Assembly (NCBI GenBank): GCA_048939015.1
Contig: JBHLPW010000001.1
Location: 32,001 to 96,000 of the forward strand
Length of the DNA stretch: 64,000 bases
Source: Promethearchaeota archaeon
GTDB taxonomy: Archaea; Asgardarchaeota; Lokiarchaeia; Sigyniarchaeales; SOKP01
Direction: 5' to 3'
Positions 1,963 through 44,288 of this stretch are shown piece by piece. Below the pieces are notes generated by a model that saw only the letters and a program-made list of their open reading frames with translations, ran no database searches and had not been told where the DNA came from. How positions within the stretch are numbered: position 1 is the stretch's first letter; every line of letters begins with the position of its first letter. The translations under genes were made by a program, and so were the position numbers.

Positions 1963-2299
1963 ATGATTTAAAGATTCTTCAAAATAAAACAGCCATACAC
2001 CGACAATTTTCTGAAATAGATGCAATTTCTATCTAGTTTAGACATAATGTTTCTGTTCTCCAGAAGAAAGGTTCTCTTAAAAGAAATACTATTTCAGGGA
2101 GACTGAGAGGGGAGATTAAAAGTAAAAATAAAATATAAAAAAGTCTTTAACATGCTTTATAGGCTTTAAAATTGAGAATCTATAATTGATCATATTAGGA
2201 AATTTGGAGGATAACTAAAATCAAACTTTATAATAAGTGTTACAAAATTATTTATTATCAATAATTTAATTATAAAAATCAAAAAAAAATTGTTATAAA

Positions 2300-4006: not shown

Positions 4007-4071
4007 TTCTCTTCGATGAAATAAGGTTTAACTTTAAAGAAATTAAAGATTTTTATTTTCTTTCTATTTAT

Positions 4072-5172: not shown

Positions 5173-5363
5173 GATTAATCCCAACTATATTGTTTTAAGT
5201 TTAATTATTTGCTAAACTTCTATTTTTCTATTTTATCTTATACGTTTTTTATTGAGATCGAAAAAATAACATAATTATAATAAACTTTTTTAATAAAATG
5301 TAGCTTATTAAATATCACAATTCGATTTTGAATTGTACTTAATAACAAAAATGTGAAAAAAAA

Positions 5364-10813: not shown

Positions 10814-11359
10814 ATTAGTACTAGATCTTTCATTTATAAGGTGGTTGTGGTAGGCGATGGTGGTGTAGGAAAAACATCTATGGTTCTCCGCTACTGTGAG
10901 AATACCTTTAAAGAAAACTATATTATGACTATTGGTTCTAATTTCTCCACCAAGCAAGTTGATTTAGATGAATACCCAAACTTTTTGATTAAGCTCCAGT
11001 TATGGGATTTAGCAGGCCAGAAACATTTCAGTTTTGTTCGTCCACCATTTTATAGGGGAGCAACAGCCATTGTGTATGTCTTTGACCTTACGCGGAGGAG
11101 TTCTTTTCAGAACATACTAAATTGGAAAGCTGAAGTGGAAAAAGTAATTGGTGATGGAAAGCCAAGTATTTTAGTAGGAAATAAAATAGATTTAGCAGAA
11201 CAGGGACAAAGAGAAGTAGGAGAAGGGGATGGAGAAGCATTAAAAGAAGAATTAAATGCTATAAAATATTATGAAACAAGTGCTAAGAAAGATCTTAGAG
11301 TATCTCCAGTCTTCCAAGACATTACACGGGCTATCCTAGAGAAGAGTCAAAAGATCTAA
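10814..11359 (+). CDS. Rab-like small GTPase (probable ATT start at 10814; the track starts at GTG 10841)
   Basis: G1 GDGGVGKTS, G2 TIG, G3 WDLAGQ, G4 NKID, G5 ETSAK. RabF-like IGSNF/KLQLW/FYRGA/YVFDLT. No C-terminal Cys. Confidence 0.93.
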   Translation: MSTRSFIYKVVVVGDGGVGKTSMVLRYCENTFKENYIMTIGSNFSTKQVDLDEYPNFLIKLQLWDLAGQKHFSFVRPPFYRGATAIVYVFDLTRRSSFQNILNWKAEVEKVIGDGKPSILVGNKIDLAEQGQREVGEGDGEALKEELNAIKYYETSAKKDLRVSPVFQDITRAILEKSQKI

Positions 11360-12660: not shown

Positions 12661-12772
12661 TTAATTAAATATTTATTTTGGCTTAATGATTTTTAAATTA
12701 AACTAACTAATTATTTTGAGATTTTTTGTTTATTAAGTTCATTCTAAATTCTTCTAAAAATAGTTGAGATAT

Positions 12773-15700
12773 ATGGAAGAGAAAAAAGAGGAAGAATTCG
12801 ACGACGAATTCGATGAGAACGGATTTGATCCTACAAAAGAGGCATTTTTTTCTGATATGATGGAAATGGAAGAAGAAATCGCTTCTGAAGCTTATGAATT
12901 GGTTGAACATGCTATTAATTTGATTCAATCTCAATATTATGATGATGGGATTGAAATTTTACGGCAAGCCATTGGGTTATATAGGCAAATCAATAGAGAA
13001 GAGGAAATTAATGCAATTAATGATAAAATATCAGAAATTTACATTCTCAAGGAACAGTCCTTCCGAGAAATAGAAACTAAACCTATAAGCGAAGGGGAGG
13101 TTATTGAGGAAGCTAAATTGATCGAGGAACATGAAGAGATTGATGAGTTGGAAGTTATTGAAGAAGCTGAGATTGTTGAAGATATTGAGACTGAAGCTAA
13201 AATGATTAGTGAAGCAGATAAGCTAATAGTTGAAGCTCATCAATTAACTAATTCTGGTCAGTTTGAAGATGCTCTTAATAAGTATGATGAAGCTGAAAAA
13301 ATTCTTGAGAAATTAAATAAATCAGAAGAAGTTGATAGATTATTTGTATTGATTGAAGAATGTTATAGTAGAAAGGCTGAATATTTACGTGGTGTTAAGA
13401 AAGAAGAAATAGAAGCGGATATGGAATTAGAGGTATCACTAAGCATAGAACAGAAAAAGGAACAAAAATTGGAACAATTTATGGAGGCTAAAAAGAGAGA
13501 AGAGGAAATTTCAACTGAGGCATACGAAATTTTAGATCAAGCAGTAGAAAAAGCTAAAATGTACGAGTATGATCAAGCTATAGAATTATATACAAAAGGA
13601 ATAAGTTTATTTGAGGAACTGAAATGGACATATGAGGTTAACAGAATTCAAGACACTGTTGAACAATTAGAAAAAGAAAAGATTAATCATCTTAAAGCTG
13701 TTGAGAAAGAAAGAATAGAGAGTCAGCAAAAAATTGAAGTTGAATTACAACAAGAGGAAATCATTGATCAGCATGCAAAAGAGATAGGTGAGCAGGAAAA
13801 ACTTGCACAAATGGAAAGGCTGAAAGGAATAGAATTTCAAAAAATGGAACAAGAATTCTTTAAGGCACAAATTGATAATATGGCAACAGAAGCAGTTAGG
13901 ATGGCACGTGAATATGAACTTGATATGCAGAAAGCGATTAAAGAGGGAAAATTAGTAGAGGAATGTATATATCCTAAAGTAATTGAGATTTATAAAAAAA
14001 TAAAAGATTTATTAATTGATAAAGGTTGGAATAAGGAAGCAGCTATTTATGATGATACAATTGATGTTTATATACAAAAATTCGAGAATGATAAAAAAAT
14101 AAGGCAAATTGAGGCAGAGAAAGCTAAAAAGCAAAAAGAGACTGAGGAATTATTAAAAGCCAAGGAACAAGAAGTAGAAGTTCGAATTAGTGAAGAACAA
14201 CAACAAATTCTAGAAAAACAACGTCAAAAAACAATAGAGATTGAGAATATTCGAAATGAAATTGATGAAATGACTAAAAAAGCTGAAAGAATTGCGAGAG
14301 AGTATGAAGTAGCATTAAGAAAGGGCAAATTTGAGCTGAAATGTCCTTATCCTAAAATTATAAGCATTTATGAAAGAGCTCAGCAAATGTCATTAGACAG
14401 AGGGTGGGAGACAGACGTTAAAATCTTTGCAAATCAGATTTATAATTATAAACAAAAGTTTGAGAAAGATAATCGATTAAGACAAGTAGAAGCTGAAAAA
14501 GCAAGAAAAAAAGAAGAGATTGAAGAAACATTAAAAGTGAGAAAAGAAGAAACTCATGTAGGACTAGATGTAGAAAAGTTAAAGCTTCTTGAAGAGCAAA
14601 AAAGATTAGAAGAAGAAAAAGAAGATTTTGATTCTACAATCGATATAATGGTAAATCGAGCTGAAAAAATGGTTCGAGAATATAATTCTGAAATGAAAAA
14701 AGCCATAAAAAAAGGTACATTAGCAGAAAACCCTCCTTTTTTGAAAATTATAGGAATATATGAAAGAGTTAAAAGAATGGTACTTGAAAGAGGGCGTGAA
14801 GAAGAAGCTAAAGCATATAGCACTCAGATTAATTTTTATACTCAAAAATTAGAACAGGATAATAAATTACGAGAAGTAGAGGCTAAAAAGGCACAGAGAG
14901 AAAAAGCACTCGAAGAAATGCATAAGATTGGTAAACAAATTGGTGTAGATGAGGATAAGTTAAGTGCAATAGAAAAAAAGAAAGAATTAGAAGATTTTGA
15001 AAAATATATTGATGAAAGTATAAATAGAGCCGAAAAATTGGTTCGAGATTATGAAATGGCTTTGAGAAAAGCTTTTAAGGATGGAGAAGTAATAAGAAGT
15101 ACTCCATATCCTGATGCTATTGAAATTTATAAAGAACTTCGAGAAAAAGTATATGCAAGAGGATGGAAAGATCAAGCTGAAGTGTATGCTAATCAGATTA
15201 AAATTTATCAAGAGAAATTAGATAAGCATGAGAAATTACTAGAAGTTGAGGCTCAAAAAGCTCAAAGAGAAAAAGAAATTGAAGCAATGCATAAGGTCGA
15301 GGGACAAGTTGAAGTTGATCATAAAAAACTAGAAATTATTGAAAGAGAAAGAGAGGAAAAAGAATTCCAGGAATATATTGCTGAAGAAATCAAGAAAGCA
15401 GGAAAACTTGAAAGAGAATTTGATTTAACTATGAAAAAAGCTATAAAAAAAGGAGAAATAATGGAACAAACACCTTATCCTGAAATAATTGAACTTTATA
15501 AAATATTACGAGAAAAAGTGTATGTAAGAGGATGGAGAGATCAAGCTGAAGTATATGCTAATCAGATTAAAATCTATCAAGAGAAGTTAGAGAAGCATGA
15601 GAGATTACTAGAAGTTGAGGCTCAAAAAGCCCAAAGAGAAAGAGACATTGAAGAGATGCATAAATCCGCAAAAGAAGTCGAAGTGGACCAGGAAAAACTA

Positions 15701-18700
15701 GTAAGTGTTGATATTAAGAAAGAAGAAAAAGAATTTCAGAAATTTATAACGGGAGAAGTAAATAAAGCAGAGAAACTTGAAAGAGAATTCGATTCAGTTA
15801 TGAAAAAAGCTATTAAAAAAGGCGAAATTTTAGAACAAACGCCCTATCTTGAAATAATAAACATATATAAAGAAATACGAGAAAAAGTGTATGCAAGAGG
15901 ATGGAGAGATCAAGCTGAAGTATATGCTAATCAGATTAAAATTTATCAAGAGAAGTTAGAGAAACATGAGAAATTACTAGAAGTTGAGGCTCAAAAAGCC
16001 CAAAAAGAAAGAGATATTGAAGAGATGCATAAGTTAGCAAAGGATATTCATGTAGATCAAAAGAAAATGGCTGTTCTTGACAAGAAAAAAGAGGAAAAAG
16101 ATTTTCAAGGTTATATAACAGGAGAAGTAAATAAAGCAGAGAAACTTGAAAGAGAATTCGATTCAGTTATGAAAAAAGCTATTAAAAAAGGCGAAATTTT
16201 AGAACAAACGCCCTATCTTGAAATAATAAACATATATAAAGAAATACGAGAAAAAGTGTATGCAAGAGGATGGAGAGATCAAGCTGAAGTATATGCTAAT
16301 CAGATTAAAATCTATCAAGAGAAGTTAGAGAAGCATGAGAGATTACTAGAAGTTGAGGCTCAAAAAGCCCAAAGAGAAAGAGACATTGAAGAGATGCATA
16401 AATCCGCAAAAGAAGTCGAAGTGGACCAGGAAAAACTAGTAAGTGTTGATATTAAGAAAGAAGAAAAAGAATTTCAGAAATTTATAACAGGAGAAGTAAA
16501 TAAAGCAGAGAAACTTGAAAGAGAATTCGATTCAGTTATGAAAAAAGCTATTAAAAAGGGGGAAGTTCTAGAACAAACGCCCTATCTTGAAATAATAAAC
16601 ATATATAAAGAAATACGAGAAAAAGTGTATGCAAGAGGATGGAAAGATCAAGCTGAAGTATATGCTAATCAGATTAAAATCTATCAAGAGAAGTTAGAGA
16701 AGCATGAGAGATTACTAGAAGTTGAGGCTCAAAAAGCCCAAAGAGAAAAAGAATTAGAAGAATTACAAAAAGCTGGAAGAAAAGAAGTCAAACCCTTTAA
16801 ACCTGAGAAATTAGAGGAACTTAAAGCTGAAAAAGAAGAGGATATATTAGTAGATAAAGCAATGAATCTCATTGATGAGGCAGAAAAGGATGTAAAGAGT
16901 TATGAATTAAGCATGAAGAAAGATATTTTAGCATATTCCAGTCCTTATGAGCAAGCAATATCAAATTATGAAGAAGCTCGAGAATTATTCAAAAAAGTTG
17001 GTTGGAATGATGAAGCTAATCGTTTGATTAATACAATCAATTTCTATAAAGATAAAAAAGAAAAAGATGAGAAATTAAGAGAAATAGAGGAAGAAAAATT
17101 AAAGAAACCTGAGTTTGAAATGATAGCAACTCAATATGATGTTGATAAAGATTTTCAAGAAAGACAAAAAAGACTATTAGAAATTCAACAGAAAAAGAAG
17201 GAAAGTGATGATATTGCTGCAGGAATTTTTAATATGATTCAAGATGCTGAAAGAATGGCTCAGGAATATGAATTAAATATAAAAAGTGGGATTTTTAATT
17301 TCGAGGCACCATATGAAACGATTATTGAAATTTATCGAGAAGCAAGAAAAGAATTCGAAAAAATAGATTGGAAAGAAGAATCAGCTAAACTAATCGAAAC
17401 GATTAATTTTTACAAGGAAAAATTAGCAAACGATAATAAAATACGTGCCTTAGAAGCTGAAAAAGTTAAGAAACGAGAAGAAGAGTTAATGCTTCAACAA
17501 AAATTGCTTGAACAAGCAAGAGTTGAACAAGAACAAATATTAAAACAACGAAAAGAGACTTTACATTTGAAAGAAGAACGAATAGCTCAATTTGAAACAA
17601 AAAAAGATAAAGCATTTCGTTTAATGGATCAAGCTAAGCGTGAATTAAGACAAAATCAATTTGATAAAGCGATTGAAATTTATAAAGAAAGTGAAGAAAT
17701 ATTTTCAGAAATAGAATGGCAAGAAGGAATCAGGATGGTTCGTGATTCGATTACAATGATTATGAATAAGAAAAAAGCTTATGAACTTGAACAAGAAGCA
17801 CTCGAAAAGAAAAAAGTTGAAAAACTCCTTATTGAAGAAAAATTGGAAGAAAAGTTAGTTGAGGCTCAAATTATAAAAGAGCGACAACAAGAAGAGAAAA
17901 GAAAGGAATTACTTAAAATTCAGAGAGCAAAGGAGCAGGAAAGAGAAATATCTGAAGAAGCATATGGACTTTTAGAAGAAGGCACCCGATTAATGGATCG
18001 AGGTAAATTTATTGAAGCATACGAGAATTATATAGCTGCGCGAGAATTATTTCAACAAATATCTTGGCAAAGAGAAGTTTCACGGATAAATAATGACCTT
18101 TTATTCAAACTTAAGAAGGAACAAAAGCAGGCTGAGATTCTAAAAGAAATTAAAATAAAGAAAATTGAAGAAGAAAAAGAAATGACTTTATTAAAGCAAC
18201 AAGCTAAAATAGAACGTAAAGAACTTGAAAAAAGAAAGAAGGAAGAGAAACGTAAACTTGCTAAAGAAGAACTTGAAAAAAAAATATCTATAAAATTAAA
18301 TAGAGCAAAAAGATTAATTGAAGAGTTTAGATACAACGAGGGAGTTTTAATTCTGAGAGAAGAAATCCAAAGATTAACGAAATTAGATAAACTAGCTGAA
18401 ATCGAAATGATAAACGAGCAAATTAGTAATATTAAAACTGAAACCCAAATTCCATTAATAACATATGATACACCTTTTGATCTTTTTGAAAATAAGAACT
18501 TTGAATCTGCCTATAAAGCGTTGGATAGAGCTCTTGTATCAATAAACAATAACCGTTTGAAAAAATCTATTTCTGAATTAAATGAGGCAAAATTCAAACT
18601 TGAAGAACTTAAATTTGGACAAAATTTTATTAATTTAATTAATGAAAAATTAATTGAGTTCAAAACTGAGATAAGTAAGAGCCCAATTAAAGAAATACAT

Positions 18701-18817
18701 GAAGTTAAAAAAGAAATTGTTATAGATGAGATGGAAGAACTTAGAAAACGTGTTGCTGCGAGAAGGGAAGAAAGAAGGAGAAAAGTTTTAGATTTATTGG
18801 GAAAGAGCGATGAATGA
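12773..18817 (+). CDS. Giant (about 2014 aa) E/K-rich alpha-helical repeat protein with about 13 modules of ~120-125 aa
   Basis: Uninterrupted 6 kb ORF. Recurrent AEK..REY/F...PY..II.IY....GW..A..Y..QI..Y..K motif separated by charged helices. ATG at 12773. Confidence 0.9.
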   Translation: MEEKKEEEFDDEFDENGFDPTKEAFFSDMMEMEEEIASEAYELVEHAINLIQSQYYDDGIEILRQAIGLYRQINREEEINAINDKISEIYILKEQSFREIETKPISEGEVIEEAKLIEEHEEIDELEVIEEAEIVEDIETEAKMISEADKLIVEAHQLTNSGQFEDALNKYDEAEKILEKLNKSEEVDRLFVLIEECYSRKAEYLRGVKKEEIEADMELEVSLSIEQKKEQKLEQFMEAKKREEEISTEAYEILDQAVEKAKMYEYDQAIELYTKGISLFEELKWTYEVNRIQDTVEQLEKEKINHLKAVEKERIESQQKIEVELQQEEIIDQHAKEIGEQEKLAQMERLKGIEFQKMEQEFFKAQIDNMATEAVRMAREYELDMQKAIKEGKLVEECIYPKVIEIYKKIKDLLIDKGWNKEAAIYDDTIDVYIQKFENDKKIRQIEAEKAKKQKETEELLKAKEQEVEVRISEEQQQILEKQRQKTIEIENIRNEIDEMTKKAERIAREYEVALRKGKFELKCPYPKIISIYERAQQMSLDRGWETDVKIFANQIYNYKQKFEKDNRLRQVEAEKARKKEEIEETLKVRKEETHVGLDVEKLKLLEEQKRLEEEKEDFDSTIDIMVNRAEKMVREYNSEMKKAIKKGTLAENPPFLKIIGIYERVKRMVLERGREEEAKAYSTQINFYTQKLEQDNKLREVEAKKAQREKALEEMHKIGKQIGVDEDKLSAIEKKKELEDFEKYIDESINRAEKLVRDYEMALRKAFKDGEVIRSTPYPDAIEIYKELREKVYARGWKDQAEVYANQIKIYQEKLDKHEKLLEVEAQKAQREKEIEAMHKVEGQVEVDHKKLEIIEREREEKEFQEYIAEEIKKAGKLEREFDLTMKKAIKKGEIMEQTPYPEIIELYKILREKVYVRGWRDQAEVYANQIKIYQEKLEKHERLLEVEAQKAQRERDIEEMHKSAKEVEVDQEKLVSVDIKKEEKEFQKFITGEVNKAEKLEREFDSVMKKAIKKGEILEQTPYLEIINIYKEIREKVYARGWRDQAEVYANQIKIYQEKLEKHEKLLEVEAQKAQKERDIEEMHKLAKDIHVDQKKMAVLDKKKEEKDFQGYITGEVNKAEKLEREFDSVMKKAIKKGEILEQTPYLEIINIYKEIREKVYARGWRDQAEVYANQIKIYQEKLEKHERLLEVEAQKAQRERDIEEMHKSAKEVEVDQEKLVSVDIKKEEKEFQKFITGEVNKAEKLEREFDSVMKKAIKKGEVLEQTPYLEIINIYKEIREKVYARGWKDQAEVYANQIKIYQEKLEKHERLLEVEAQKAQREKELEELQKAGRKEVKPFKPEKLEELKAEKEEDILVDKAMNLIDEAEKDVKSYELSMKKDILAYSSPYEQAISNYEEARELFKKVGWNDEANRLINTINFYKDKKEKDEKLREIEEEKLKKPEFEMIATQYDVDKDFQERQKRLLEIQQKKKESDDIAAGIFNMIQDAERMAQEYELNIKSGIFNFEAPYETIIEIYREARKEFEKIDWKEESAKLIETINFYKEKLANDNKIRALEAEKVKKREEELMLQQKLLEQARVEQEQILKQRKETLHLKEERIAQFETKKDKAFRLMDQAKRELRQNQFDKAIEIYKESEEIFSEIEWQEGIRMVRDSITMIMNKKKAYELEQEALEKKKVEKLLIEEKLEEKLVEAQIIKERQQEEKRKELLKIQRAKEQEREISEEAYGLLEEGTRLMDRGKFIEAYENYIAARELFQQISWQREVSRINNDLLFKLKKEQKQAEILKEIKIKKIEEEKEMTLLKQQAKIERKELEKRKKEEKRKLAKEELEKKISIKLNRAKRLIEEFRYNEGVLILREEIQRLTKLDKLAEIEMINEQISNIKTETQIPLITYDTPFDLFENKNFESAYKALDRALVSINNNRLKKSISELNEAKFKLEELKFGQNFINLINEKLIEFKTEISKSPIKEIHEVKKEIVIDEMEELRKRVAARREERRRKVLDLLGKSDE
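15135..16750 (+). repeat. Intragenic tandem repeat, 369-bp (123-codon) period, about 4.4 near-identical units
   Basis: TCAAGCTGAAGT(A/G)TATGCTAATCAGATTAAAAT starts at 15172, 15541, 15910, 16279 and 16648, spaced exactly 369 bp apart. Confidence 0.95.
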
Positions 18818-33485: not shown

Positions 33486-34532
33486 TTATTTAGTTATAAC
33501 CATCTCGTGAAGTGTACTTCCTGTTTCTAATTCCGATTTTCCTTCAAATGATATATTAAGTTCAAATTTAGAGTTTAATCGAAAATAACCTGGTCTTAAT
33601 TTTAAAAGATTTTTAGCAAGAAAACGTGTAATGGGCCCAAATTCATAAAGTAAATTATCAGCATCTATGATTTCTTGAACCCTAAGAGTAATTTCATATT
33701 GATTTTCTACATTAAACCTTAAGAACTTTGGATAACTATTGTCCGCTTCATCATTATATTCAAAATTTTCTTGTATTAATTCGTATTCACCAGTACTAAG
33801 AATAATGCTTTCATTTTTAGCTAGCATTAAAACTTGTATTGGATAATTTTCCATTTTCTTGTTACATTTTATATAAGCAAAGATTACTGTATAATTCTCA
33901 GAATAAATCCTACCCCAGTACCAATAATCGATTATCATCGCAAAATTGAAATTTAACCAATTATGATCATGGTAACCAATACCTTGTACATGAATCGTTT
34001 CATTGTTAACCTTTATAGTTCCTTCAACGTCTGCTCGAGGTAGAGCTACGACCCAACCAAATTGATTTGACTTTCCGAACTCAATATATCCATTTCCAGG
34101 TTTCCAACCGTAGACCTTAGCCGTATATTTTAAATGAAATCCATACTCACCCTCATCAATAAAAACTTCATAGATGGGTAGTTCCTTATTTGAGTAATCA
34201 ACTTTAATATAATTCTTACCAATTCGCAAATCTGGAGTATCTTTCGAAGCCGTAAAATCTGAATGGAGATAATCAATTACATTCTGTATTTTTTCTCCAT
34301 CAGGTTTATATATCGTAACTTCTACTCCTGTTTTACCAGTTCGTTCATGTTTTGCTCGAAAAAACCCTACCACCGTATAACCATTATCAAGTCGAGCATC
34401 AAAATACCACCATTCTCGGGTTCCCTTCTTTTGCATATCAATGTGTAATGCATCATCTTTAGCTATGATTGGTTTAATTTGGCTATCCTTTCTACCTGGT
34501 CCTAACCAGGCTTCTATAATTTTTGAACTCAT
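33486..34532 (-). CDS. CrtC/tocopherol cyclase/lipocalin-like family protein
   Basis: EWWYFDA, GIGYHDHNW, WYWGR motifs. Confidence 0.75.
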   Translation of the reverse strand: MSSKIIEAWLGPGRKDSQIKPIIAKDDALHIDMQKKGTREWWYFDARLDNGYTVVGFFRAKHERTGKTGVEVTIYKPDGEKIQNVIDYLHSDFTASKDTPDLRIGKNYIKVDYSNKELPIYEVFIDEGEYGFHLKYTAKVYGWKPGNGYIEFGKSNQFGWVVALPRADVEGTIKVNNETIHVQGIGYHDHNWLNFNFAMIIDYWYWGRIYSENYTVIFAYIKCNKKMENYPIQVLMLAKNESIILSTGEYELIQENFEYNDEADNSYPKFLRFNVENQYEITLRVQEIIDADNLLYEFGPITRFLAKNLLKLRPGYFRLNSKFELNISFEGKSELETGSTLHEMVITK

Positions 34533-34574
34533 AATTATTCTTTTTCGTATTATTATTAATATTTAATATCCTTT

Positions 34575-34991
34575 TTACTCGCTATCACTTGTTAAAAATT
34601 TAAATATCTTTAATAAAATGAGTAATTTTCTAATCCCCCGCATTTTTACTTTACGGGTTAACCACAATTTCGCAACCCCTAGTAATGAAAGACGATTCAT
34701 AGCAATAGCAAGAAAAGTTTGTGTATCCATTTCTAAGAAGGCATTCCAGCCTATTTTTTGCTTTTTTAAATTTTCTTTTGGTTTGTTTGGAACACTCTCA
34801 ACTTTTATTACTCCCCTATCAATTACAATTATTGCGGCATGATTTAGATTGGAGGCGTTTAAGAGAATTTTAACGTGAATATTGCTAAATTTAATTTTAA
34901 ATTTTTCATTTTCATTTAGAGGTGTTAAAATACTATTGATAAGAACTGCAAAACCTCTTAATTTTTCATTCTCTTGGTTAGATTCTACCAT
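34575..34991 (-). CDS. SCP2 (sterol carrier)-like lipid-binding protein
   Basis: LEMDTQTFLAIAMNRLS...LWLTRKVKMRG. ATG 34991 avoids the overlap with the upstream gene. Confidence 0.7.
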   Translation of the reverse strand: MVESNQENEKLRGFAVLINSILTPLNENEKFKIKFSNIHVKILLNASNLNHAAIIVIDRGVIKVESVPNKPKENLKKQKIGWNAFLEMDTQTFLAIAMNRLSLLGVAKLWLTRKVKMRGIRKLLILLKIFKFLTSDSE

Positions 34992-35016
34992 GATATTGAT
35001 CCTAATCAAAAAATTT

Positions 35017-36585
35017 TTATTTGGTTTTTGGTGAAATGTAAAATCCAGAATCTGATATATTATTTGGGTCAAAAGCTTCTTTAATTTTTCTTAACCATGT
35101 ATGGTAATTAGACATATGAGGGCCGAATAATTCATGCATACGTGTACCCTCTACGAAGAACGGAGCCCCGAGATGTTTTAATAAATCTAATTGGTTACTC
35201 TTCTCCATATATTCCGCCGTCCCTTTTACGCTGTGTTCTTTAGTTTGATCAAACATTGTAGGGGACTCCATATGAAAATAATGACCTGACTCATATGATG
35301 TCATCCAGGTTCCCTCTCCAAAATCATTTGCAATTACTTCTTTTTTGATAAAATCTTTTTTTAATGATATATTTGATTTAGTACTGCGAAGACATACTGC
35401 GGGAGTATCAGCAACTCCTTTTGACGATTGAAATCCTCCAGTAGCTATAAAACCATGTAATCCTAAATTTGAACGGAGGGCTTCAGCGTAGAAGATAGGA
35501 TTTGGTGTATATATCTTTCCAATAATATTATTTAATTTAAATTTCTGTAGTAGAGAATCCATTACTTTTTGTTTATAATCAAATTCTCCTTTGGTACGTG
35601 CAGCTATTATTACAACTATAGGTGCCTTCATCTGCCCTATTGGGATTTTATCCATTAAACTTTCAATAGAATTAGAAAAAATTGCCATTACAGCAAAACC
35701 CGATAAGAAACTGCACATGAAAGAAATTTCTTTTTCTTCTATTTTCAACATGACTTTTTCGACTTTATTGAAATTGCCACAATCCATAACATATAATTTC
35801 ATAAAATCAGGTGCTTCAAAATCATAGTTGGGAGAATATCCTTTAATATTAAAGTCTGTTTTACAAGGATAAGGAAAAAGTTTTACCGCGACTTTAGTAA
35901 ATACACCGAGACCTGATTTAGTACCAGCCCAACCTCTCATAATGCCACGTAAACTGGGTCCTGGTCCATCTCCATGAAAAAAATCTGGATTGTTTTTTAG
36001 ACCGAAAGCTCCTAATTTCATAATTTCTCCGTTTGGTAATACCCATTCAACAGCTAAAACGTTTCTGGAACTATGTCCCGTCGAAGGAGACGTAAAACCT
36101 GGACCGTTCATTGATGTTGCGCTAGCTAGAGGAGAAACTTGAGGTCCTGCACCAGGCATATGGCAATTAAGCCCATATTTCATTATTTCAACTTGTAGCT
36201 GAGACCCACTCACATAAGGTTCAACTACAGCATACAGGTTTTTTTCATCAATTTTCACAATTTTATTCATTCGACGTAGATCTAAAATAATAGAGTTATC
36301 TACAGAAGGTTGATTCCATGGGCCAAGTCCTGTACTTTGAGCTTTAAATGTAATACCGTATTTATTACATAATTTTATTATTTGTTGAACTTCTTCGGTA
36401 GTTGATGGTAAAATAACCGCTTTAGGAATTGGAGAAAAGGGAATTGGCTCTTTATCTTCCATATAATTAAAAATTTCCATACACCAGTTATATGCATATA
36501 CATTAGTCATAACTTCACTGTCGTCAATATATCCTACTCCAACTACATCCTCAAATTCTTTAAATTTTTCTTTCTCCAGAACCAT
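35017..36585 (-). CDS. FAD-binding oxidoreductase (VAO/GlcD-type FAD_binding_4)
   Basis: PSTTEEVQQII, LDLRRMNKI, VEPYV, VEWVLPNGEI, LGVFTK, IKEAFDPNNI. Confidence 0.88.
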   Translation of the reverse strand: MVLEKEKFKEFEDVVGVGYIDDSEVMTNVYAYNWCMEIFNYMEDKEPIPFSPIPKAVILPSTTEEVQQIIKLCNKYGITFKAQSTGLGPWNQPSVDNSIILDLRRMNKIVKIDEKNLYAVVEPYVSGSQLQVEIMKYGLNCHMPGAGPQVSPLASATSMNGPGFTSPSTGHSSRNVLAVEWVLPNGEIMKLGAFGLKNNPDFFHGDGPGPSLRGIMRGWAGTKSGLGVFTKVAVKLFPYPCKTDFNIKGYSPNYDFEAPDFMKLYVMDCGNFNKVEKVMLKIEEKEISFMCSFLSGFAVMAIFSNSIESLMDKIPIGQMKAPIVVIIAARTKGEFDYKQKVMDSLLQKFKLNNIIGKIYTPNPIFYAEALRSNLGLHGFIATGGFQSSKGVADTPAVCLRSTKSNISLKKDFIKKEVIANDFGEGTWMTSYESGHYFHMESPTMFDQTKEHSVKGTAEYMEKSNQLDLLKHLGAPFFVEGTRMHELFGPHMSNYHTWLRKIKEAFDPNNISDSGFYISPKTK

Positions 36586-37890
36586 TTAAGCTGCCTCACC
36601 TACAGATTCCTTAATTGATTTCTTTTGTGACCTGATCGCCATTAACAATAACTCACTTATATCATAAAACTTCAAATTAGACCCTTTTTCAGTAATACCA
36701 TCTTTTAAATTTGTAGAACAAAAAGGACAAGCAGAAATTAATGCTTCTGCTCCTGTATCCTCTGCTTCTTCAATCCTTTTCTTAGCAGTATTAATCGCAA
36801 ATTCTGGAAATGCTGATTTTACACCTCCTCCTGCACCACAACAATAAGAATACTCTTTTATTCTTTCCATTTCAACGAAATTAAGGCCTGGTATTTTATT
36901 TAACAAATCTCTTGGAGAATCATATATACCATATTTTCCACATCTTTTAGGTTTTTCAGGCATATTAATAGATACAAGAGGCATCATTTGCAATGAATCT
37001 CCATCCCATTCTTCATATGGCTCACAATTACGTCCTAAATGGCAAGGATCATGATAAGTAACTTTAAATGGTATTTCCTTTGTTAATTTTAATTGTTCAT
37101 TATCGAGTAATTCATTGAATAATTCTGAAGTATGAAGTACCTTAAAATCATAATTCCGTTCTAAAGGATAATCGACTTTAAATGTATCATAACATCCAGC
37201 ACAACTAAAAACCACAGTTTCTATTTTTTCTTTTTCGATTATTTCAATATTTTTGTTCAATTGGTCTATAAATGAATTTTTATCTCCTGTTCTTAAAATT
37301 GGACTTCCACAACAAAACTCATTTTTACTTAGAATTTTAAATGGATAGTTTGCAGCATTCAATACTCGTGCTGTAGCAATTGCTATTTCTTTTCTTCTGT
37401 AGGATGATGTACATCCCACAAAATAGAGCGTTTTTGCTTTAGGATCGATTTTAATATCAGTTGGTAACCATTCTACCCGTTTTTCATGAGGTTCATTATA
37501 TGGATTATTTTTATTTTTTATAGATCCAATATATTGTTGCTGTTTAGGCATTGGTCCATATCCAGAAGAGACTAATTTTTCTCTAAGTTTAGTAATAATT
37601 TCAAGTGGTTCCAAAGTATTTAGAAACTTACAGGAAATAGCACAACCTCCACATTCAGTGCATTTATAAACAATTTCGATTAATTCTTTGGAGGGTTCAA
37701 GGCGTCCCATCTCTAACGCTAAAGCAATAATTATACGTCCACCCCCACTATATGCATGGTAATTGTACATATCTATCGAAGGACAAATAGTTGCATATTT
37801 CTGACTCTTAATTTGCAGTTGTGGTATCCATTTACATATAGAACAACGTAAGCAGCGTTTAATCATTTGGTTATATTCAGATTCATTCAA
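36586..37890 (-). CDS. Fe-S oxidoreductase with two CCG domains (GlcF/HdrD-like)
   Basis: CLRCSIC, CTECGGC, FVGC, CCG, YHDPCHLGR, CCGAGGG, ACPFC. Confidence 0.92.
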   Translation of the reverse strand: MNESEYNQMIKRCLRCSICKWIPQLQIKSQKYATICPSIDMYNYHAYSGGGRIIIALALEMGRLEPSKELIEIVYKCTECGGCAISCKFLNTLEPLEIITKLREKLVSSGYGPMPKQQQYIGSIKNKNNPYNEPHEKRVEWLPTDIKIDPKAKTLYFVGCTSSYRRKEIAIATARVLNAANYPFKILSKNEFCCGSPILRTGDKNSFIDQLNKNIEIIEKEKIETVVFSCAGCYDTFKVDYPLERNYDFKVLHTSELFNELLDNEQLKLTKEIPFKVTYHDPCHLGRNCEPYEEWDGDSLQMMPLVSINMPEKPKRCGKYGIYDSPRDLLNKIPGLNFVEMERIKEYSYCCGAGGGVKSAFPEFAINTAKKRIEEAEDTGAEALISACPFCSTNLKDGITEKGSNLKFYDISELLLMAIRSQKKSIKESVGEAA

Positions 37891-38036
37891 TAAAGTAAAA
37901 AATCCCCTTTTTATAAAATATTTAACAAATGCTTGAAATCAAAAGTGATTAATCAAATAAAATGGTATCTATAAAAATCTTATCGCTTTTACTTTTAAAT
38001 ATCAAGCTATAAAGAATTGGTATTTAAGGTTTATAT

Positions 38037-38921
38037 TTAAACAATTTGAGAAAGTTCGTCCCAATATTGTTTTATATTCCATTCTCTTTTTGTCTTTATA
38101 TTTAAAGCAATCTTTTTTAAGATGTCTCTGATTCTTTCTGAGTTCAGATAATGAAAGTTTGGGGTTATAGCACATACCATAAATGTTCCTTTTCCACTTT
38201 TGGGAGCAATTATTGAATTTTCTTCCATTTTATCTATTAAACCATACGCATCAATCAGATCCTTAACAATCCTCATAATAAATTGGTTTTTTTCGAGAAC
38301 TTGTTCAAACTCATATATTTTTATTAGAGTTGAATACAATTGAGTAGTAAGTTCTTCAAGATTAAGTGATGGAATTAGATTTTTTGGAAAATAATCCAAT
38401 ATTACTGGTCCTTTTCCATCATCCCAACTCATATAAAAAAGATAATAAAAGTCAGCTTTACTACGTGCTTCAAGAGATGGTTCCTCATACTTTAAAATGT
38501 CCTTTAGCTTTTCCTCAAGTATTTTTGAGCTTTTTTTAATTTCTCTACTTTCTTTAATTTTTTTTGATATTTTTTCCAATAAAGCCATAGGGCTAAAAGG
38601 TTTTGTAATATAATCATCTGCTCCAAGCATTTTTCCAAATCTGACATCATCAGGTTCTACTTTACCAGATAAAAAGAAAAATGGAATTCTTGACCATTCT
38701 GTATTTTCGGAAACCTTCATATAAAAGTCATAGCCATCCATTATTGGCATTAGAATGTCACTTATTATAATATCAGGAGGATGATCTAAATTTGAAAGAA
38801 CTTCCAGCGCTTTTTTACCATTTATAGCTGTTATCAAATCATAATCATTCATTTCTAGAAATATTTTGAAATTCGTTACAAGAACTTCATCATCTTCAAC
38901 CAAGAATACGAGAGGGTTCAT
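38037..38921 (-). CDS. Response-regulator receiver fused to a probable uDENN/longin-like domain
   Basis: VEDD, IISDILMPIMDG, FLSG, YITKPF (intact receiver); C-terminal LFYMSWDDGKGPVILDYFP. ATG 38921. Confidence 0.85.
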   Translation of the reverse strand: MNPLVFLVEDDEVLVTNFKIFLEMNDYDLITAINGKKALEVLSNLDHPPDIIISDILMPIMDGYDFYMKVSENTEWSRIPFFFLSGKVEPDDVRFGKMLGADDYITKPFSPMALLEKISKKIKESREIKKSSKILEEKLKDILKYEEPSLEARSKADFYYLFYMSWDDGKGPVILDYFPKNLIPSLNLEELTTQLYSTLIKIYEFEQVLEKNQFIMRIVKDLIDAYGLIDKMEENSIIAPKSGKGTFMVCAITPNFHYLNSERIRDILKKIALNIKTKREWNIKQYWDELSQIV

Positions 38922-39074
38922 TATTAAAAACTCGTCTAAAAGATATTGATAATTTTGATACTCTCTTATAATAAAACTAGAGATATTTAATATTTTTGAA
39001 ATCGAAAATAAAGCCAAACTCAATCTAATTTTTGTCAAAAAGTTTCTAAATAGAAATAAGGAAATTTAATTAAT

Positions 39075-40541
39075 TTACGGATCAAAACATAACACTCCAG
39101 GATTTAACACATTATTAGGATCGAATATTTTTTTCACTTTTTTTAAAGCCATTTGGACGTTATCTTCTTGTCTCTTAAAAACCTCCTTTGACCAAACACC
39201 ATAAGGACGATTAAAAAATGCTCCTGAATCCATTAAATCGATACTAATTTTAGCATACTTTTCTTTTATTAAACTTGACTCGATCTTATTATTTGGGTCG
39301 TAAAAAAGATCAAATTCACAATGATATGAGGTTCCTTGATTTATTGCTTGAATATATATACCAACATCATCAGAAATTTCATTCTGAACCTTACTGATAA
39401 ATTTATGAATTCTCTCATAATTCGTGATAAAGAAAATATCTTGAAAGCCACCTTTTAATCTATTTCGCCATGAGTATAAAGTAGGTTCATTTAAAGCATG
39501 AATAATTTCACTTTTACTGATTGGGCTTTCTTTTTTTAACAAATAGTTGAGTTTAAGATCTTCAATCATTTGAAATATATCATCTTCTTGATAAGATATT
39601 TTATCATTTGCTAAACTACCACGACCAGCTAAAACAAAAATTAAGTTCCATTCAGCTAATGAATTTTTTAAATGTTCTATTTGGTCTAAATCTTTCTCAA
39701 CTAAACATGCAATGTTAATATTATTGAGAATTAATATTTCATCTCCTAATCGGTATTTTAATAATTGATGTTGAAGATTTAATAAATCTAGAAGATTTTC
39801 TGATTGAAGATGAAAAACTTTTTGAATTGTAGGTTTTAATTCTAATTTTAAGGTCGCCCATGTAACTATTCCCAGACTTCCTTGAGCACCTTGTATTAAT
39901 CTATAAGGACTAAATTGTGTTGGCCCCATTGGATTAACTTGTGCTTGACCGGATTTTTTTTGTTGCTTAATGGATCCAGGACCTGCGGCAGTACCAGTCC
40001 TAAAAAGATCTCCTGTACCAAAAACAACCTCAGTACACAATAATGGATCGGAACTATCCCATTGATAACGAGGAATTGTAGTTGGGGATCTTTCAAGAGC
40101 TGCTGTTAGAATAGATTTATCCTCTCGTGGAAGGAGAGGTAACAATAGCCGTAAACCTTTCTTTTGAAGGATCAGAAGTAATTGTCCAAATGTAACACCG
40201 GGTTCAATCATTATAACTCTATTTTTTCTATCAATACTTAAGATTTTGTTCATTCGGGAAAGGTCAATAATAATACAGTTACCTTTTTGCGGAATTGTGT
40301 CTCCATGATAACGTTCAGGGGAACTTGAGCTCACTGGAATAACTGAAAATTCTAATGAATTAGCTAATTTTATGACTTTTTCAATTTGTTTTGTTTTATA
40401 TAGCCATATTACATATATTGGTTTTGTACCTTTAACAAAACTTAAATCAGCAGAATAATCATCTAACAAATCTGGATCATTTGAAATATTCTTAGAACCA
40501 CAAATTTTAACTAATTCCTGAAATATATGTTCTTCATTCAT
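39075..40541 (-). CDS. FAD-binding oxidoreductase (VAO/GlcD-type)
   Basis: IDLSRMNKIL, IEPGVTF, EVVFGTGDLFRTG, GSLGIVT, KIFDPNNVLNPG. ATG 40541. Confidence 0.88.
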   Translation of the reverse strand: MNEEHIFQELVKICGSKNISNDPDLLDDYSADLSFVKGTKPIYVIWLYKTKQIEKVIKLANSLEFSVIPVSSSSPERYHGDTIPQKGNCIIIDLSRMNKILSIDRKNRVIMIEPGVTFGQLLLILQKKGLRLLLPLLPREDKSILTAALERSPTTIPRYQWDSSDPLLCTEVVFGTGDLFRTGTAAGPGSIKQQKKSGQAQVNPMGPTQFSPYRLIQGAQGSLGIVTWATLKLELKPTIQKVFHLQSENLLDLLNLQHQLLKYRLGDEILILNNINIACLVEKDLDQIEHLKNSLAEWNLIFVLAGRGSLANDKISYQEDDIFQMIEDLKLNYLLKKESPISKSEIIHALNEPTLYSWRNRLKGGFQDIFFITNYERIHKFISKVQNEISDDVGIYIQAINQGTSYHCEFDLFYDPNNKIESSLIKEKYAKISIDLMDSGAFFNRPYGVWSKEVFKRQEDNVQMALKKVKKIFDPNNVLNPGVLCFDP

Positions 40542-40657
40542 AATTAAAAAGTATGAAAGCAAATCTTTTCTTCTAAAAATATTTCTCTCTATTAAGATAT
40601 TACCATTTATAATAAAATGAATTTGAAATTTGGTAAAAAAAGAGAACTAAAAAGCTA

Positions 40658-42685
40658 TTAATTTTTCAATTTTAAATCTGTAAATCCATATACACCATAA
40701 ATGCGAAATTGTTCTATTACATTATTGTTCAGGATTTTTACCAAACCGGTTAATTTTTGATTAGGAAAATCTAATTTTAATCTATATACATTTTCATAAA
40801 ATCTTTCAGATGCCCTAAATGTCTCAAGATTTATCAAATCTTTCAAATCTTGGTCTGAATGAACTTTCTTTATATTTATTTCACCATTTTGAATTGAAAT
40901 TGACGGTTGTTGGTTAATAGATATCGAGGGTACTGTTTTTTCATCTTCATTTTTTAAATTAATAATTTCCTTTACCATTGAGGTTATAAATCCAATATTA
41001 GGATGGTATAATATTATGTTCTTATCTGTTAAGGATATTTTTTGGGTTAGATCGTTATCAAAATACCCTTTTCCAGAAATATTAATAGAATTATCATTAA
41101 AATCCAAAATAATAGATATGTCACCATCTGGAGATATAAGTCTAAATGTAGCTTCTTTTAATTTTGATAAAGAATTATATATTAAATACCCTTGATAATC
41201 ACTCTCATCATCCTTTCCATAATAGTAGTGGATGATATTGTCATTTGATTTTTGAATAGCCAATTGCTCTCCAAAACATTTTGTTTTAATAAAAAGACCA
41301 TCGTATTTTAAAATTTTCTCTGGTTCTTTTATTTGAAATTCTTTTTCAATTAAATTATGATAATCTTTAACCTGTTTAAATGATTCTGTAAGTTTCTCTA
41401 ATTGATCATTTAAGTATTCTTGCGAAATCCATCTTCCTCGAAATACTAAACCAAATCTTTTCTTAGTATTCGTAATTATTTCTATGGGATTTGCATTTAA
41501 TATTAATAAATCAGCTCTTTTACCCACAGAAACAGTTCCAACTTTATCTAAACACCCTATAAATTCAGCAGCATTCTTAGTAGCACATTTTAGAGTTTCA
41601 TAGGGAGAAATCCCACTTGATACAAATCTTTCAAGTTCATCATGAAATGCAAAACCTGGTATTGTATGAGGATTTAAAGCATCTGTTCCGACTAAGATTT
41701 TTCCTTTACTTTGATATAATTTACCAAGTATAGATGATTTCAATTCTATTGATTTACGTGTAAATTCTACCCATTCCTTACTCTTAAACTTTTGGTTAAG
41801 CCTTGGATTCTTCTTCAAATCCCATGCATCTAATATTTCTGGAGAAATAAATCTTGTCTCAGGTCGACTAAGTAATCTTTCTTGTTCCTCAAATTCCAAT
41901 AGAAAATGGACAACTAAAGTAGGACAATGCCACACACCTGCATCTACTGCTTTTTTGATAATAGACGGTATACGTGATTCATCTAAATAATCAAAGCTTT
42001 GTATCCAGATATTCATATCTGTTGTATATTTAGGAGGTGCATCTTCCGGCAAAAAGGATAAAAGATAGCCGTCTAAATGAGATATAGCATATTGTCTCTT
42101 TTGTAAGGCATGTTCTAAACCTACTGCCCAAGGTACATGACCTACAATTGGGATATTATGTTCTCTTCCAGCATCAATCAAGGCATCATAGACTTCTCTT
42201 GTGAGATTAAAATAAATTTTGATTTGTTTATATCCTAGGTCTTTAAATATTTTAACTAATTTTTTAGCGTTATCAGGTGTATTAACAATCGCACAATTTG
42301 GCCAATAGGGTTTGGCATCTATTATAGGACTTGTAGTGAAAATATTAGGACATAATAAATCACCATGCTCTATTCTTTCTTGCCATTTCAAATGTCGTGG
42401 AAAACCCCACATATTTCGAATGGTAGTTATCCCATTAGCAAGATATAGAATCATCTGGTTTTCGTCCATAAGATGCACATGCATATCCATTAAACCAGGA
42501 AGTGTATATCTATTTGTACCATCTACTATCAATTGTTCTGAGCTTAGTTCAATTTTACCAGTTGGCTGAATCTCTTTTATTATTTCATTTTCGATTAAAA
42601 TATCATGATTGTAGAGGACATCTTCAGATTCCATAGTTATAATATTAGTATTTTTAATTAGTATCAAATTACTTTGATTTAACAT
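40658..42685 (-). CDS. Amidohydrolase-family protein with C-terminal extension
   Basis: LPGLMDMHVH, GH, SH, VGTD, GTVSVGKRADLLIL. Confidence 0.88.
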   Translation of the reverse strand: MLNQSNLILIKNTNIITMESEDVLYNHDILIENEIIKEIQPTGKIELSSEQLIVDGTNRYTLPGLMDMHVHLMDENQMILYLANGITTIRNMWGFPRHLKWQERIEHGDLLCPNIFTTSPIIDAKPYWPNCAIVNTPDNAKKLVKIFKDLGYKQIKIYFNLTREVYDALIDAGREHNIPIVGHVPWAVGLEHALQKRQYAISHLDGYLLSFLPEDAPPKYTTDMNIWIQSFDYLDESRIPSIIKKAVDAGVWHCPTLVVHFLLEFEEQERLLSRPETRFISPEILDAWDLKKNPRLNQKFKSKEWVEFTRKSIELKSSILGKLYQSKGKILVGTDALNPHTIPGFAFHDELERFVSSGISPYETLKCATKNAAEFIGCLDKVGTVSVGKRADLLILNANPIEIITNTKKRFGLVFRGRWISQEYLNDQLEKLTESFKQVKDYHNLIEKEFQIKEPEKILKYDGLFIKTKCFGEQLAIQKSNDNIIHYYYGKDDESDYQGYLIYNSLSKLKEATFRLISPDGDISIILDFNDNSINISGKGYFDNDLTQKISLTDKNIILYHPNIGFITSMVKEIINLKNEDEKTVPSISINQQPSISIQNGEINIKKVHSDQDLKDLINLETFRASERFYENVYRLKLDFPNQKLTGLVKILNNNVIEQFRIYGVYGFTDLKLKN

Positions 42686-42878
42686 TCATTTCACCTTCTA
42701 TTTTCTCAATACTCAATTAAACAAATAACTTAAATAAATTTTTGTTTGAAAAAACCCTTTTCATTCTACGATAGATGGGAATTATGATGGTTACCTCCAA
42801 AAAACCAAATTTTTAAATATCTGATGAGTATTATAAAACAAATAATAATTCTAAAAGATTATAAAAAAAGAGATTCAA

Positions 42879-44288
42879 ATGAAAGATTTTGATTTAATCA
42901 TTGTAGGTGCTGGACCTGGAGGATCGATGGCAGCAAAAACTGCTGTAGAAAAAGGATTAAAAACAATTTTTTTTGAACGCAGTCGTAAGCCTGGTGAAAA
43001 AAATTCTTCTGGGTGTGGATTAGGACCACGTATGTTTAGAGATTTTCCTGAAATGATGAAAAATTTAACTCCCGATAAGTGTCCTTCAATGAGAGCTGGA
43101 GCTGCTTCACGTAACTATTTTATAAATGAAGATGATATTGTGGCAGGATATATTATGGCTCGGCCTACAGAATCTGTTTCATACGAACCTGCTAAATCTT
43201 GGATTACAATGAATGTGTATCGTAGTGAATTTGACCCCTGGATTGCAAAGTTTGCGACCGATGCAGGTGCTGAATTAAAAACTTCAACGTTAATTGTAGA
43301 TCTATTAAAAGAGGATGGTAGAGTGTGTGGTGTGATTGACGAAAAAGGAGAAAAATATAAGGCTCCACTTGTTATTGGAGCAGATGGTGTTATTTCAATT
43401 GTTGCTCAAAAATCTGGATTGAGGAATAAATGGGCTCAAAATCAGGTAACACTAGTACCCCAATATGATTTTCAAGCACCACCAGATAAGATTGATGATA
43501 TTATGGGTGATGAAACCTTAGGTATCTGGTGGGGTTCAACATTTCCATCATCATACCAAGTCTTTTTTAATGATGGATTCCATCAAGGATTAGGAAATTG
43601 GATGAATTGGTGGGACCGGAATCCATTATATTATTTAAATCGTGTTATTAATCTAAAATATTATCAAAGATTGTTAAAACTCCTTGATGCTAAACCACGT
43701 GAACTTCAAGCTCATCTACTCCCATGGTTAGATTATCCTAATAATACGCATACTGATGGTGTTATATTAATTGGAGATGCTGGTGGTTTTCCATGTCCTC
43801 TTGAGGCCGAGGGAATATATCCTGCTATGGTTACAGGAAAGGTTGCCGCAGAAGTAGCCTCTGAACTGGTATCATCTGAAGATGTATCCAAATCAACACT
43901 CAAAAAATTTGATGAGAAGTGGCAACAAACTAGTATTGGCAAAGAGTTTGAGGCGGGATTTGAGCTATACAATATTTGGAAAGCACTACCCTTTAGCCCA
44001 AAAGAAACTATGTCATGGTTCGTACCAATGATAATGGAAATCATTGGAGGTATTTTTGATTGGTCTCAACCTCATGCTTTAAGAGTAAGACAAATTATAA
44101 GTCATGTAAAGTCATATATGCCTAAAGCGACACCTTTTATAATGGCATATGTATTTCCCCTATTAGCTAAGGTTTTCGAAGATGATTTAGATAAGTTAAT
44201 GGATCCTAAGAAAATTATGAAGGTATTACCTAAACTATTAGAAATGCTCCCACAGAAAAAGAAAAAAAGAGGCGGAGAACAAAAATGA
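42879..44288 (+). CDS. FAD-dependent oxidoreductase, FixC/geranylgeranyl-reductase family
   Basis: VGAGPGG, PGEKNSSG, RSEFDPW, IGADG, LIGDAGG, EGIYPA. Confidence 0.88.
   Translation: MKDFDLIIVGAGPGGSMAAKTAVEKGLKTIFFERSRKPGEKNSSGCGLGPRMFRDFPEMMKNLTPDKCPSMRAGAASRNYFINEDDIVAGYIMARPTESVSYEPAKSWITMNVYRSEFDPWIAKFATDAGAELKTSTLIVDLLKEDGRVCGVIDEKGEKYKAPLVIGADGVISIVAQKSGLRNKWAQNQVTLVPQYDFQAPPDKIDDIMGDETLGIWWGSTFPSSYQVFFNDGFHQGLGNWMNWWDRNPLYYLNRVINLKYYQRLLKLLDAKPRELQAHLLPWLDYPNNTHTDGVILIGDAGGFPCPLEAEGIYPAMVTGKVAAEVASELVSSEDVSKSTLKKFDEKWQQTSIGKEFEAGFELYNIWKALPFSPKETMSWFVPMIMEIIGGIFDWSQPHALRVRQIISHVKSYMPKATPFIMAYVFPLLAKVFEDDLDKLMDPKKIMKVLPKLLEMLPQKKKKRGGEQK

Follow-up and report, generated by a model that had tools for sequence, protein, structure and literature searches.

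Control of Rag and Arf GTPases in eukaryotes is exerted by paired longin proteins, one of which bears a catalytic arginine, and is central to nutrient sensing and membrane traffic. The components of such control exist in Asgard archaea, from which NPRL2-like longin domains joined to domains of two-component signal transduction have been described (Liu et al., bioRxiv 10.1101/2020.10.19.343400, section 10 and Fig. 5c); in strain MK-D1 the genes for small GTPases do not, as a rule, share operons with those for roadblock, longin or TRAPPC3 proteins (Tran et al., PMC10933270). The subject here is a gene for a 294-residue response regulator with an N-terminal receiver (REC) and a C-terminal longin output domain. 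It lies in a stretch of 64,000 nucleotides from a Promethearchaeota archaeon (assembly GCA_048939015.1, contig JBHLPW010000001.1, positions 32,001 to 96,000; hereafter the window), which is part of contig C12 of a 4.86 Mb assembly in 125 contigs. Many relatives of this REC-longin gene are encoded beside histidine kinases and small GTPases, and the gene itself belongs to a diverged, arginine-less orphan clade whose product is here read as a putative non-catalytic platform. Its parts, in window coordinates, are:

38037..38921, (-) strand: whole gene, a 294-aa response regulator with longin output (open reading frame list, translation, common start)
38037..38039, (-) strand: stop codon of the gene
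38562..38915, (-) strand: receiver domain, residues 3-120 (Pfam PF00072 and AlphaFold model)
38757..38759, (-) strand: GAC codon of D55, the predicted phospho-acceptor (read from the sequence)
38445..38561, (-) strand: linker, residues 121-159 (AlphaFold and alignment)
38040..38444, (-) strand: longin-fold output domain, residues 160-294, 135 aa (topology and structural search)
38406..38426, (-) strand: W166-D167-D-G-K-G171-P172, the WD and GP motifs at the beta1-beta2 turn (read from the sequence)
38199..38201, (-) strand: AAA codon of K241 in the beta4-beta5 loop, at the family's arginine column (alignment)
38922..39074, (-) strand: upstream intergenic region, 153 nt, A+T-rich with TATA-like runs (read from the sequence)

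The receiver matches Pfam Response_reg (PF00072) over residues 5-118 with an E-value of 8.6e-21 and 74.6 bits against a cut-off of 30.2, whereas NCBIfam returns for the protein receiver-level matches only, to many regulator families. The residues expected of a working receiver are present (E9-D10-D11, D55 in ISDILMP, S85, Y104 and K107-P108) and are invariant or nearly so across 23 homologues; D55 is conserved in at least 90% of the alignment, the exceptions being truncated rows. Spacings of 30, 19 and 3 between D55, S85, Y104 and K107 are CheY-like, the CheY counterparts being D57, T87, Y106 and K109. In the full-length AlphaFold model, which was built on 82 relatives (mean predicted local distance difference test score, pLDDT, 88.9; predicted template-modelling score 0.85), the receiver adopts the (beta-alpha)5 arrangement with pLDDT mostly of 84-98 and a low of 72 at residues 91-100. 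Judged by its sequence, then, the receiver is intact and its phospho-acceptor conserved, and a preliminary description of this DNA, which had called the receiver complete and phosphorylatable, is upheld on the point. The helical linker of that description is likewise seen in the model, where helix 5 of the receiver runs on unbroken as one helix from residue 111 to 142, followed by an E146-E147-P148 segment. Linker residues L139, K140, I142, L143, K144, E146, E147 and P148 are invariant in the 23 homologues; because of this invariant L139-P148 segment, the linker is taken to be under selection, as would be expected if it transmits a signal.

Beyond the linker, the modelled output domain comprises strands at 160-167 and 171-178, a helix at 188-206, strands at 213-220, 223-231 and 246-253, and helices at 258-276 and 283-293. 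The 'helix, three strands, helix' that had been noted for a C-terminal domain of about 140 residues is exact once the opening hairpin is passed, and the topology (b-b-a-b-b-b-a-a) is identical in two AlphaFold models from two alignments. The VIA-align search, an all-against-representatives structural comparison, found the best solved match in the longin domain of a Lokiarchaeal Roadblock-Longin protein (8yqg_B; Z 13.2, root-mean-square deviation 2.8 Å over 124-127 residues). Scores for proteins related to GTPase-activating protein (GAP) complexes were 12.1-12.5 for Lst4, 11.2 for FLCN, 10.0-10.9 for GATOR1 chains and 9.8-10.2 for chains of the C9orf72 complex; other longins scored 11.5 (Ykt6), 11.3-11.5 (VAMP7), 10.5-11.0 (DENND1A/B, with DENND1A at 11.0) and 10.9 (sedlin), and roadblock proteins 8.7-9.2 (MglB) and 7.6 (MglC). 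All of the best 50 VIA-align rows are longin or roadblock proteins. Foldseek, whose ranking also uses sequence, is led by a SEA-complex chain, DENND1B, GATOR1 chains, the Loki longin, Lst4 and FLCN-FNIP2 (E 6e-4 to 1e-2), and a second structural comparison on the Foldseek candidates agrees with the longin assignment. Among predicted structures the nearest clusters (template-modelling score, TM, 0.59-0.64) are Promethearchaeota hypotheticals, eukaryotic DENND11/Avl9/Afi1-SPA/uDENN proteins (the uDENN cluster at TM 0.62) and an Asgard cluster partly annotated NPR2. As modelled, the C-terminal domain is a longin fold, and the alternative that it might prove to be a PAS, GAF or helix-turn-helix (HTH) fold was not borne out by the Foldseek check that the preliminary description had proposed. 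A PAS/LOV reading was considered and rejected: LOV domains appear in Foldseek at TM 0.2-0.35 with low probability, and there are none among the best 50 VIA-align rows.

Searches at the level of sequence were uninformative for this domain. Pfam and NCBIfam assign no family to the C-terminal half, where DUF5623, FtsK_gamma and V-SNARE appear at chance level (E 0.07-0.2), and a Pfam scan of 82 family members found the output domain covered by no family, with a single Folliculin match at E 0.018. Profile searches of PDB sequences gave, with a narrow alignment, only ribonucleotide reductase at E 0.04, which was read as chance, and, with a 50-row alignment, nothing up to E 10; the kinship to solved longins is therefore visible in structure alone. 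An ESM Atlas feature search returned only unnamed Promethearchaeota clusters, at scores of at most 0.79, under the level where chance matches stop.

Sub-typing of the longin by structure alone was tried and fails, for SNARE, sedlin, adaptin, DENN and GAP longins all score at Z of about 9.8-12.5. Because the structural scores do not separate the sub-types, it is the motif that decides the assignment. A GP motif where beta1 turns into beta2 is specific to FLCN, NPRL2, SMCR8 and C9orf72 and is absent from FNIP2, NPRL3, adaptins, TRAPP and DENND proteins (PMC12290439). In C9orf72 the GP (G38-P39) is adjoined by W33-D34 (PMC12290439); these two residues contact ARF1, and in the W33G/D34K mutant GAP activity is nearly abolished (PMC8213707). 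The arginine finger has a different distribution, being present in FLCN, NPRL2 and SMCR8 and absent in C9orf72, FNIP and NPRL3 (PMC12290439). It is SMCR8 that provides Arg147 in the ARF1 complex (PMC8213707), so that C9orf72 holds the GTPase while its partner supplies the arginine (PMC8213707; PMC12290439). Some Asgard longins carry both the GP and the arginine finger, in the eukaryotic arrangement (PMC12290439).

The window's protein has the W-D-x3-G-P motif, with a further proline, P179, seven residues beyond the GP; among 50 diverse family members the W is kept in 48, the G in 44, P172 in 47 and P179 in 46. This motif places the output domain among the longins of FLCN/NPRL2/SMCR8/C9orf72 ('GP-motif') type. 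The preliminary description had spoken of a uDENN/longin motif, of which the longin half stands and the uDENN label does not: the GP is reported to be absent from DENND proteins (PMC12290439), and there is no DENN/dDENN part here. Neither a DENN/dDENN nor an NPRL2-specific domain follows the longin, as the chain ends at residue 294, right behind the second C-terminal helix, and the uDENN, DENN, Avl9 and NPR2 Pfam profiles (those of the uDENN/DENN module being PF03456, PF02141 and PF03455) find no match in the protein at E up to 10.

Relatives connect the domain with small GTPases. A family profile search of 1.84 billion representatives yielded 117 clusters, in which most members are of about 295 aa and end in the longin, with a receiver ahead of it; 64 of the 82 that were scanned contain a receiver. 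The domain also occurs in the combinations PAS-HisKA-HATPase-REC-longin, Ras-longin, Arf-longin, RsbRD_N-longin and DUF1638-longin. Fusion partners include Ras (P0129) and Arf (P0136), both in proteins from other metagenomes, and a histidine kinase-receiver pair (P0112, P0114). Five metagenomic relatives (P0083, P0092, P0099, P0107 and P0165) are RsbRD_N-longin, DUF1638-longin or REC-longin proteins, the last of these lengthened at the C-terminus by some 120-130 residues without assignment. The same genome as the window holds four further members of the family, namely two REC-longin genes, one Ras-longin and one Arf-longin-PAS-HATPase_c:

L008:1486-2736 = G000:C46, (-) strand: Ras-longin fusion, 416 aa, with a linker of about 90 residues and the WD, GP and arginine all there
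L012:2647-6039 = G000:C64, (-) strand: Arf-longin-PAS-PAS-HATPase_c protein, 1130 aa
L013 (G000:C103:1-8000), 876-1211, 1251-1799, 1913-4087 and 4137-5063, all (+) strand: the four genes of the C103 cassette
L014 (G000:C77:46500-54500), 3279-4964 (-) strand, kinase; 5050-5943 (+) strand, REC-longin; 6040-6594 (+) strand, Rag-like GTPase: the C77 cassette

The 1130-aa protein begins with 150 aa that have no assignment, followed by an Arf-family GTPase (153-314), a longin in which the arginine is kept and GL replaces GP, two PAS domains and a C-terminal HATPase_c; by its domain matches it thus unites GTPase, putative regulator and sensor kinase in one chain. The C103 cassette consists of an ArsR-type HTH gene, a Gtr1/RagA-Arf-like GTPase, a MASE3-PAS-HisKA-HATPase kinase and an arginine-bearing REC-longin, co-directional and with gaps of 39-113 nt. 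In the C77 cassette a divergent histidine kinase is followed by an arginine-bearing REC-longin and then by the Rag-like GTPase; upstream of it lie a further kinase and a lone receiver (1663-3152, (-) strand).

Forty further paralogue loci, drawn from a 301-genome sample of the phylum and scored with purpose-built profiles, repeat the pattern. The gene order of the C103 cassette recurs in most of them. Of the 42 REC-longin genes at these loci, 34 have a kinase within 300 nt, 31 have a Rag-, Arf- or Ras-like GTPase within 5 kb (the usual order being GTPase, kinase, REC-longin), and 40 encode the loop arginine. A Pfam check of 10 cassette GTPases gave Gtr1_RagA/Arf as best match in six and Ras in four. 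The genome as a whole contains about 94 matches to Ras-superfamily GTPases and 48 to HATPase_c kinases in 4.86 Mb, at which density chance adjacency would be far lower than that seen. A profile match between the cassette subgroup and the window's subgroup (E 3e-21) covers receiver, linker and longin over the full length. Through fusions and operons, then, sequence ties the longin family as a whole to small GTPases and two-component signalling. The family arginine is read as a finger because its site in the beta4-beta5 loop lies about 70 residues past the GP and because of what PMC12290439 states of Asgard longins; on this reading the REC-longins of the cassettes are GAP candidates, regulated by phosphorylation, for the Rag/Arf-like GTPases encoded with them.

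The window's gene departs from this pattern. In the loop column just ahead of strand 5, where 35 of 49 family rows have an arginine, its product has K241. A maximum-likelihood tree of 71 longin domains places it in a clade of 27 rows (Shimodaira-Hasegawa-like approximate likelihood-ratio support 100) on a long stem of 1.34, with 44 rows outside. The loop arginine is found in none of the 27 rows inside the clade and in 39 of the 44 outside it, and the G of the GP in 18 of 27 inside and in 44 of 44 outside. Genomic setting follows the same division: eight loci with members of the arginine-less clade were examined (the window and seven others), and at these no kinase lies within 5 kb, and a GTPase lies within that distance at only one, L001, where it is 4.6 kb away. 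Contig C12 carries none of the genome's 48 HATPase_c matches, which bears out the earlier statement that the window has no histidine kinase. The window's gene is thus a diverged orphan, without the family's loop arginine and without its kinase and GTPase neighbours. For this clade, which has neither the arginine nor a kinase neighbour nor a conserved GTPase neighbour, GTPase regulation has to be argued from relatives; the earlier proposal that phosphorelay is wired directly to GTPase regulation accordingly holds as a family-level link, through fusions and operons, and does not carry over directly to this gene. A catalytic GAP role for its protein is unlikely.

Divergence has not meant decay, since mean column identity across the 23 homologues is 77%, linker included. 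The longest frame over the gene, 38037..39038, opens at TTG 39038; all 22 aligned homologues have a start Met matching ATG 38921, and it follows that 38037..38921 (294 aa and stop), the extent given from the outset, is likely the gene. The search for receiver plus longin in Asgard archaea that the preliminary description had called for found the architecture in 62 homologue clusters, every named one being labelled Asgard (Promethearchaeota/Loki, Thor, Hermod, Hod or Odin). In the A+T-rich window (G+C about 30%), the 153-nt region upstream, 38922..39074, is probably the gene's own promoter, as judged from its sequence, and the flanking gaps in relatives are similar in size to those here; a scan for bacterial-type promoters and terminators around the gene gave scores no better than shuffles.

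The reading that we favour, and hold to be somewhat better than evenly supported, is that the protein is a non-catalytic longin platform under the control of phosphorylation, with a GTPase or an arginine-bearing paralogue as its binding partner. With the WD and GP kept, and the arginine and dedicated partners lacking, it most resembles C9orf72, NPRL3 and FNIP. An unlinked histidine kinase, of which the genome has about 48 candidates, would phosphorylate D55; the resulting change at the alpha4-beta5-alpha5 face would pass down the extended alpha5 helix, and this signal would alter the pairing of the longin or the exposure of its helical/WD face. The longin itself would serve as a platform in the manner of C9orf72, NPRL3 and FNIP in the eukaryotic longin GAP complexes, either holding a small GTPase or pairing with an arginine-bearing longin paralogue, and would supply no catalytic arginine of its own.

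Several points weigh against this platform. Binding of a GTPase or paralogue is a prediction across the whole family. The equation of the family's arginine column with the finger of FLCN (R164), NPRL2 (R78) and SMCR8 (R147) is one of position, together with the statement in PMC12290439. The structural scores do not set GAP-type longins apart from those of SNAREs, sedlin or adaptins. Orthology among the sampled paralogue loci is extensive, so that the cassette counts overstate independent support. Finally, the conserved place of the gene inside a cluster of FAD oxidases and CCG proteins hints at a different target. The immediate neighbours are:

39075..40562: FAD_binding_4 oxidase beside the regulator
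36586..37890: CCG/4Fe-4S protein on the other side of the regulator, followed by a second FAD_binding_4 gene

This last point underlies the rival that survives best, in which the longin is a protein-interaction output onto neighbouring redox enzymes (the two FAD_binding_4 oxidases, the CCG/4Fe-4S subunit and a FixC/FixX-like pair), so that phosphorylation would tune a metabolic complex and no small GTPase would be involved. The window, a closed Loki genome (L001) and Thor- and Hermod-labelled contigs (L002, L004) all have the same gene order, FAD_binding_4, regulator, CCG-Fer4_8, FAD_binding_4, and a clade member with 45% identity (L055) lies 3 kb from the same cluster; in all, five of the eight loci examined in the arginine-less clade are in or near a FAD-oxidase/CCG Fe-S cluster, and no GTPase or kinase is conserved nearby. 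The regulator nonetheless persists without the cluster in two other lineages, the FAD/CCG genes being gone at L005/L006 and the surroundings different at L059, and the gaps of about 150 nt on either side suggest a transcription unit of its own. The whole region from Hsp70 to an MFS transporter is moreover syntenic, so the adjacency may reflect inherited order rather than function, and all the informative fusions and operons of the family implicate GTPases and kinases. A redox target is thus possible and, in our estimate, unlikely.

Rather less probable again is that the protein is itself an active GAP or guanine-nucleotide-exchange factor for a GTPase encoded elsewhere, acting through K241, K244, the invariant R217 or the GTPase's own machinery. 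The WD and GP are fully intact in the window's protein, the genome's many Ras-superfamily matches offer possible targets, and roadblock/longin regulators such as MglB work without an arginine finger. The residue at position 241, however, is not conserved even among close orthologues, in which K, E, Q, H, G and S are all found, and the GP glycine decays within the clade, as is expected after loss of catalysis.

A more specific form of the platform proposal casts the arginine-less REC-longin as the 'holder' in a heterodimeric longin GAP with an arginine-bearing paralogue, in which aspartate phosphorylation would decide pairing and the target would be Rag- or Arf-like. So stated it is a long shot; if true, such a heterodimer would be a prokaryotic forerunner of the catalytic/non-catalytic split in GATOR1, FLCN-FNIP and C9orf72-SMCR8. 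Least probable is that the protein is mainly a phosphate sink, its receiver draining the kinases of the paralogous cassettes and its longin serving for dimerisation only: an orphan regulator with an intact receiver and two kinase-linked REC-longin paralogues in the same genome would suit this, but the longin and linker match the receiver in strength of conservation, which a mere sink would not need.

Other features of the window can be noted briefly. The conserved redox/lipid-like cluster extends over 33486..44288 and comprises a FixC-like FAD_binding_3 gene ((+) strand), FAD_binding_4, the regulator, CCG/4Fe-4S, FAD_binding_4, a 165-aa unknown and a CrtC/tocopherol-cyclase-like gene; relatives' clusters include a small FixX-like ferredoxin. 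An amidohydrolase of 675 aa (40658..42685) is present in the window and has no counterpart at L002 or L004, while L001 has a 310-aa Amidohydro_2 gene nearby. The window's only small GTPase, a Ras-family protein of 172 aa (10841..11359, (+) strand; Pfam E 2.1e-48), is 27 kb from the regulator. A 2017-aa open reading frame (12764..18817, (+) strand) has no Pfam match at E 0.001 and lies in a region of strand skew (GC skew 0.34-0.39, AT skew up to 0.36).

The closest described class is that of Liu et al., with which the window's protein shares its architecture (a receiver and an Asgard longin of the NPRL2/FLCN kind) and the meaning proposed for it, two-component input to GTPase regulators. In the portion of the preprint cited above, the class occupies one sentence and a figure, with no biochemistry, and the text there does not mention an arginine-less orphan clade. 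The hybrid of two-component and longin systems is therefore not new; the general idea has been published, and what the present comparison contributes is a way to test it, not a fresh concept. The new element may be the sharp division of the family into cassette copies that have the arginine and an orphan clade that lacks it. Literature searches combining Asgard, histidine kinase, small GTPase and longin, with a coverage outside which subscription journals fall, and Roadblock-Longin with Lokiarchaeota, found no paper. The cassettes of GTPase, kinase and REC-longin are an exception, of practical value, to the pattern reported for MK-D1 (PMC10933270). They offer a clonable trio of kinase, REC-longin and Rag-like GTPase, to which the window's gene is the natural arginine-less counterpart; the arginine and the adjacent kinase are cassette features that its clade lacks, a GTPase within 5 kb occurring there at one locus. 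Comparison of cassette and orphan bears on whether Asgard longins are GAPs and on whether the catalytic/non-catalytic split is older than eukaryotes.

More distant systems share single elements. A precedent among prokaryotes for receiver proteins acting on a Ras-like GTPase through regulators of the roadblock/longin superfamily is provided by Frz-RomR/MglB/MglC and MglA of Myxococcus xanthus, although receiver and roadblock are there on separate proteins, the fold is that of roadblock, with its N-terminal helix, and no homology is implied. The best structural match, 8yqg, is from the same phylum, but it is only 10% identical, is fused to a roadblock rather than a receiver and goes unseen by the sequence profile. 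With C9orf72, of the C9orf72-SMCR8-WDR41 Arf GAP complex, the window's protein has in common the longin fold, identical W-D-x3-G-P spacing and the want of an arginine finger of its own; it differs in having no DENN after the longin and no similarity to PDB sequences detectable by hidden Markov models. The Rag GAPs GATOR1 (NPRL2-NPRL3) and FLCN-FNIP (Lst7-Lst4) likewise have the longin fold, with the GP found in FLCN and NPRL2, and the paralogues of the window's gene are encoded beside Gtr1/RagA-like GTPases. The window's protein, unlike these, lacks the arginine and any NPRL2-specific or DENN domain, and carries at its N-terminus a receiver that is absent from any eukaryotic member, so that control here would be exerted by aspartate phosphorylation rather than by nutrient-sensing complexes.

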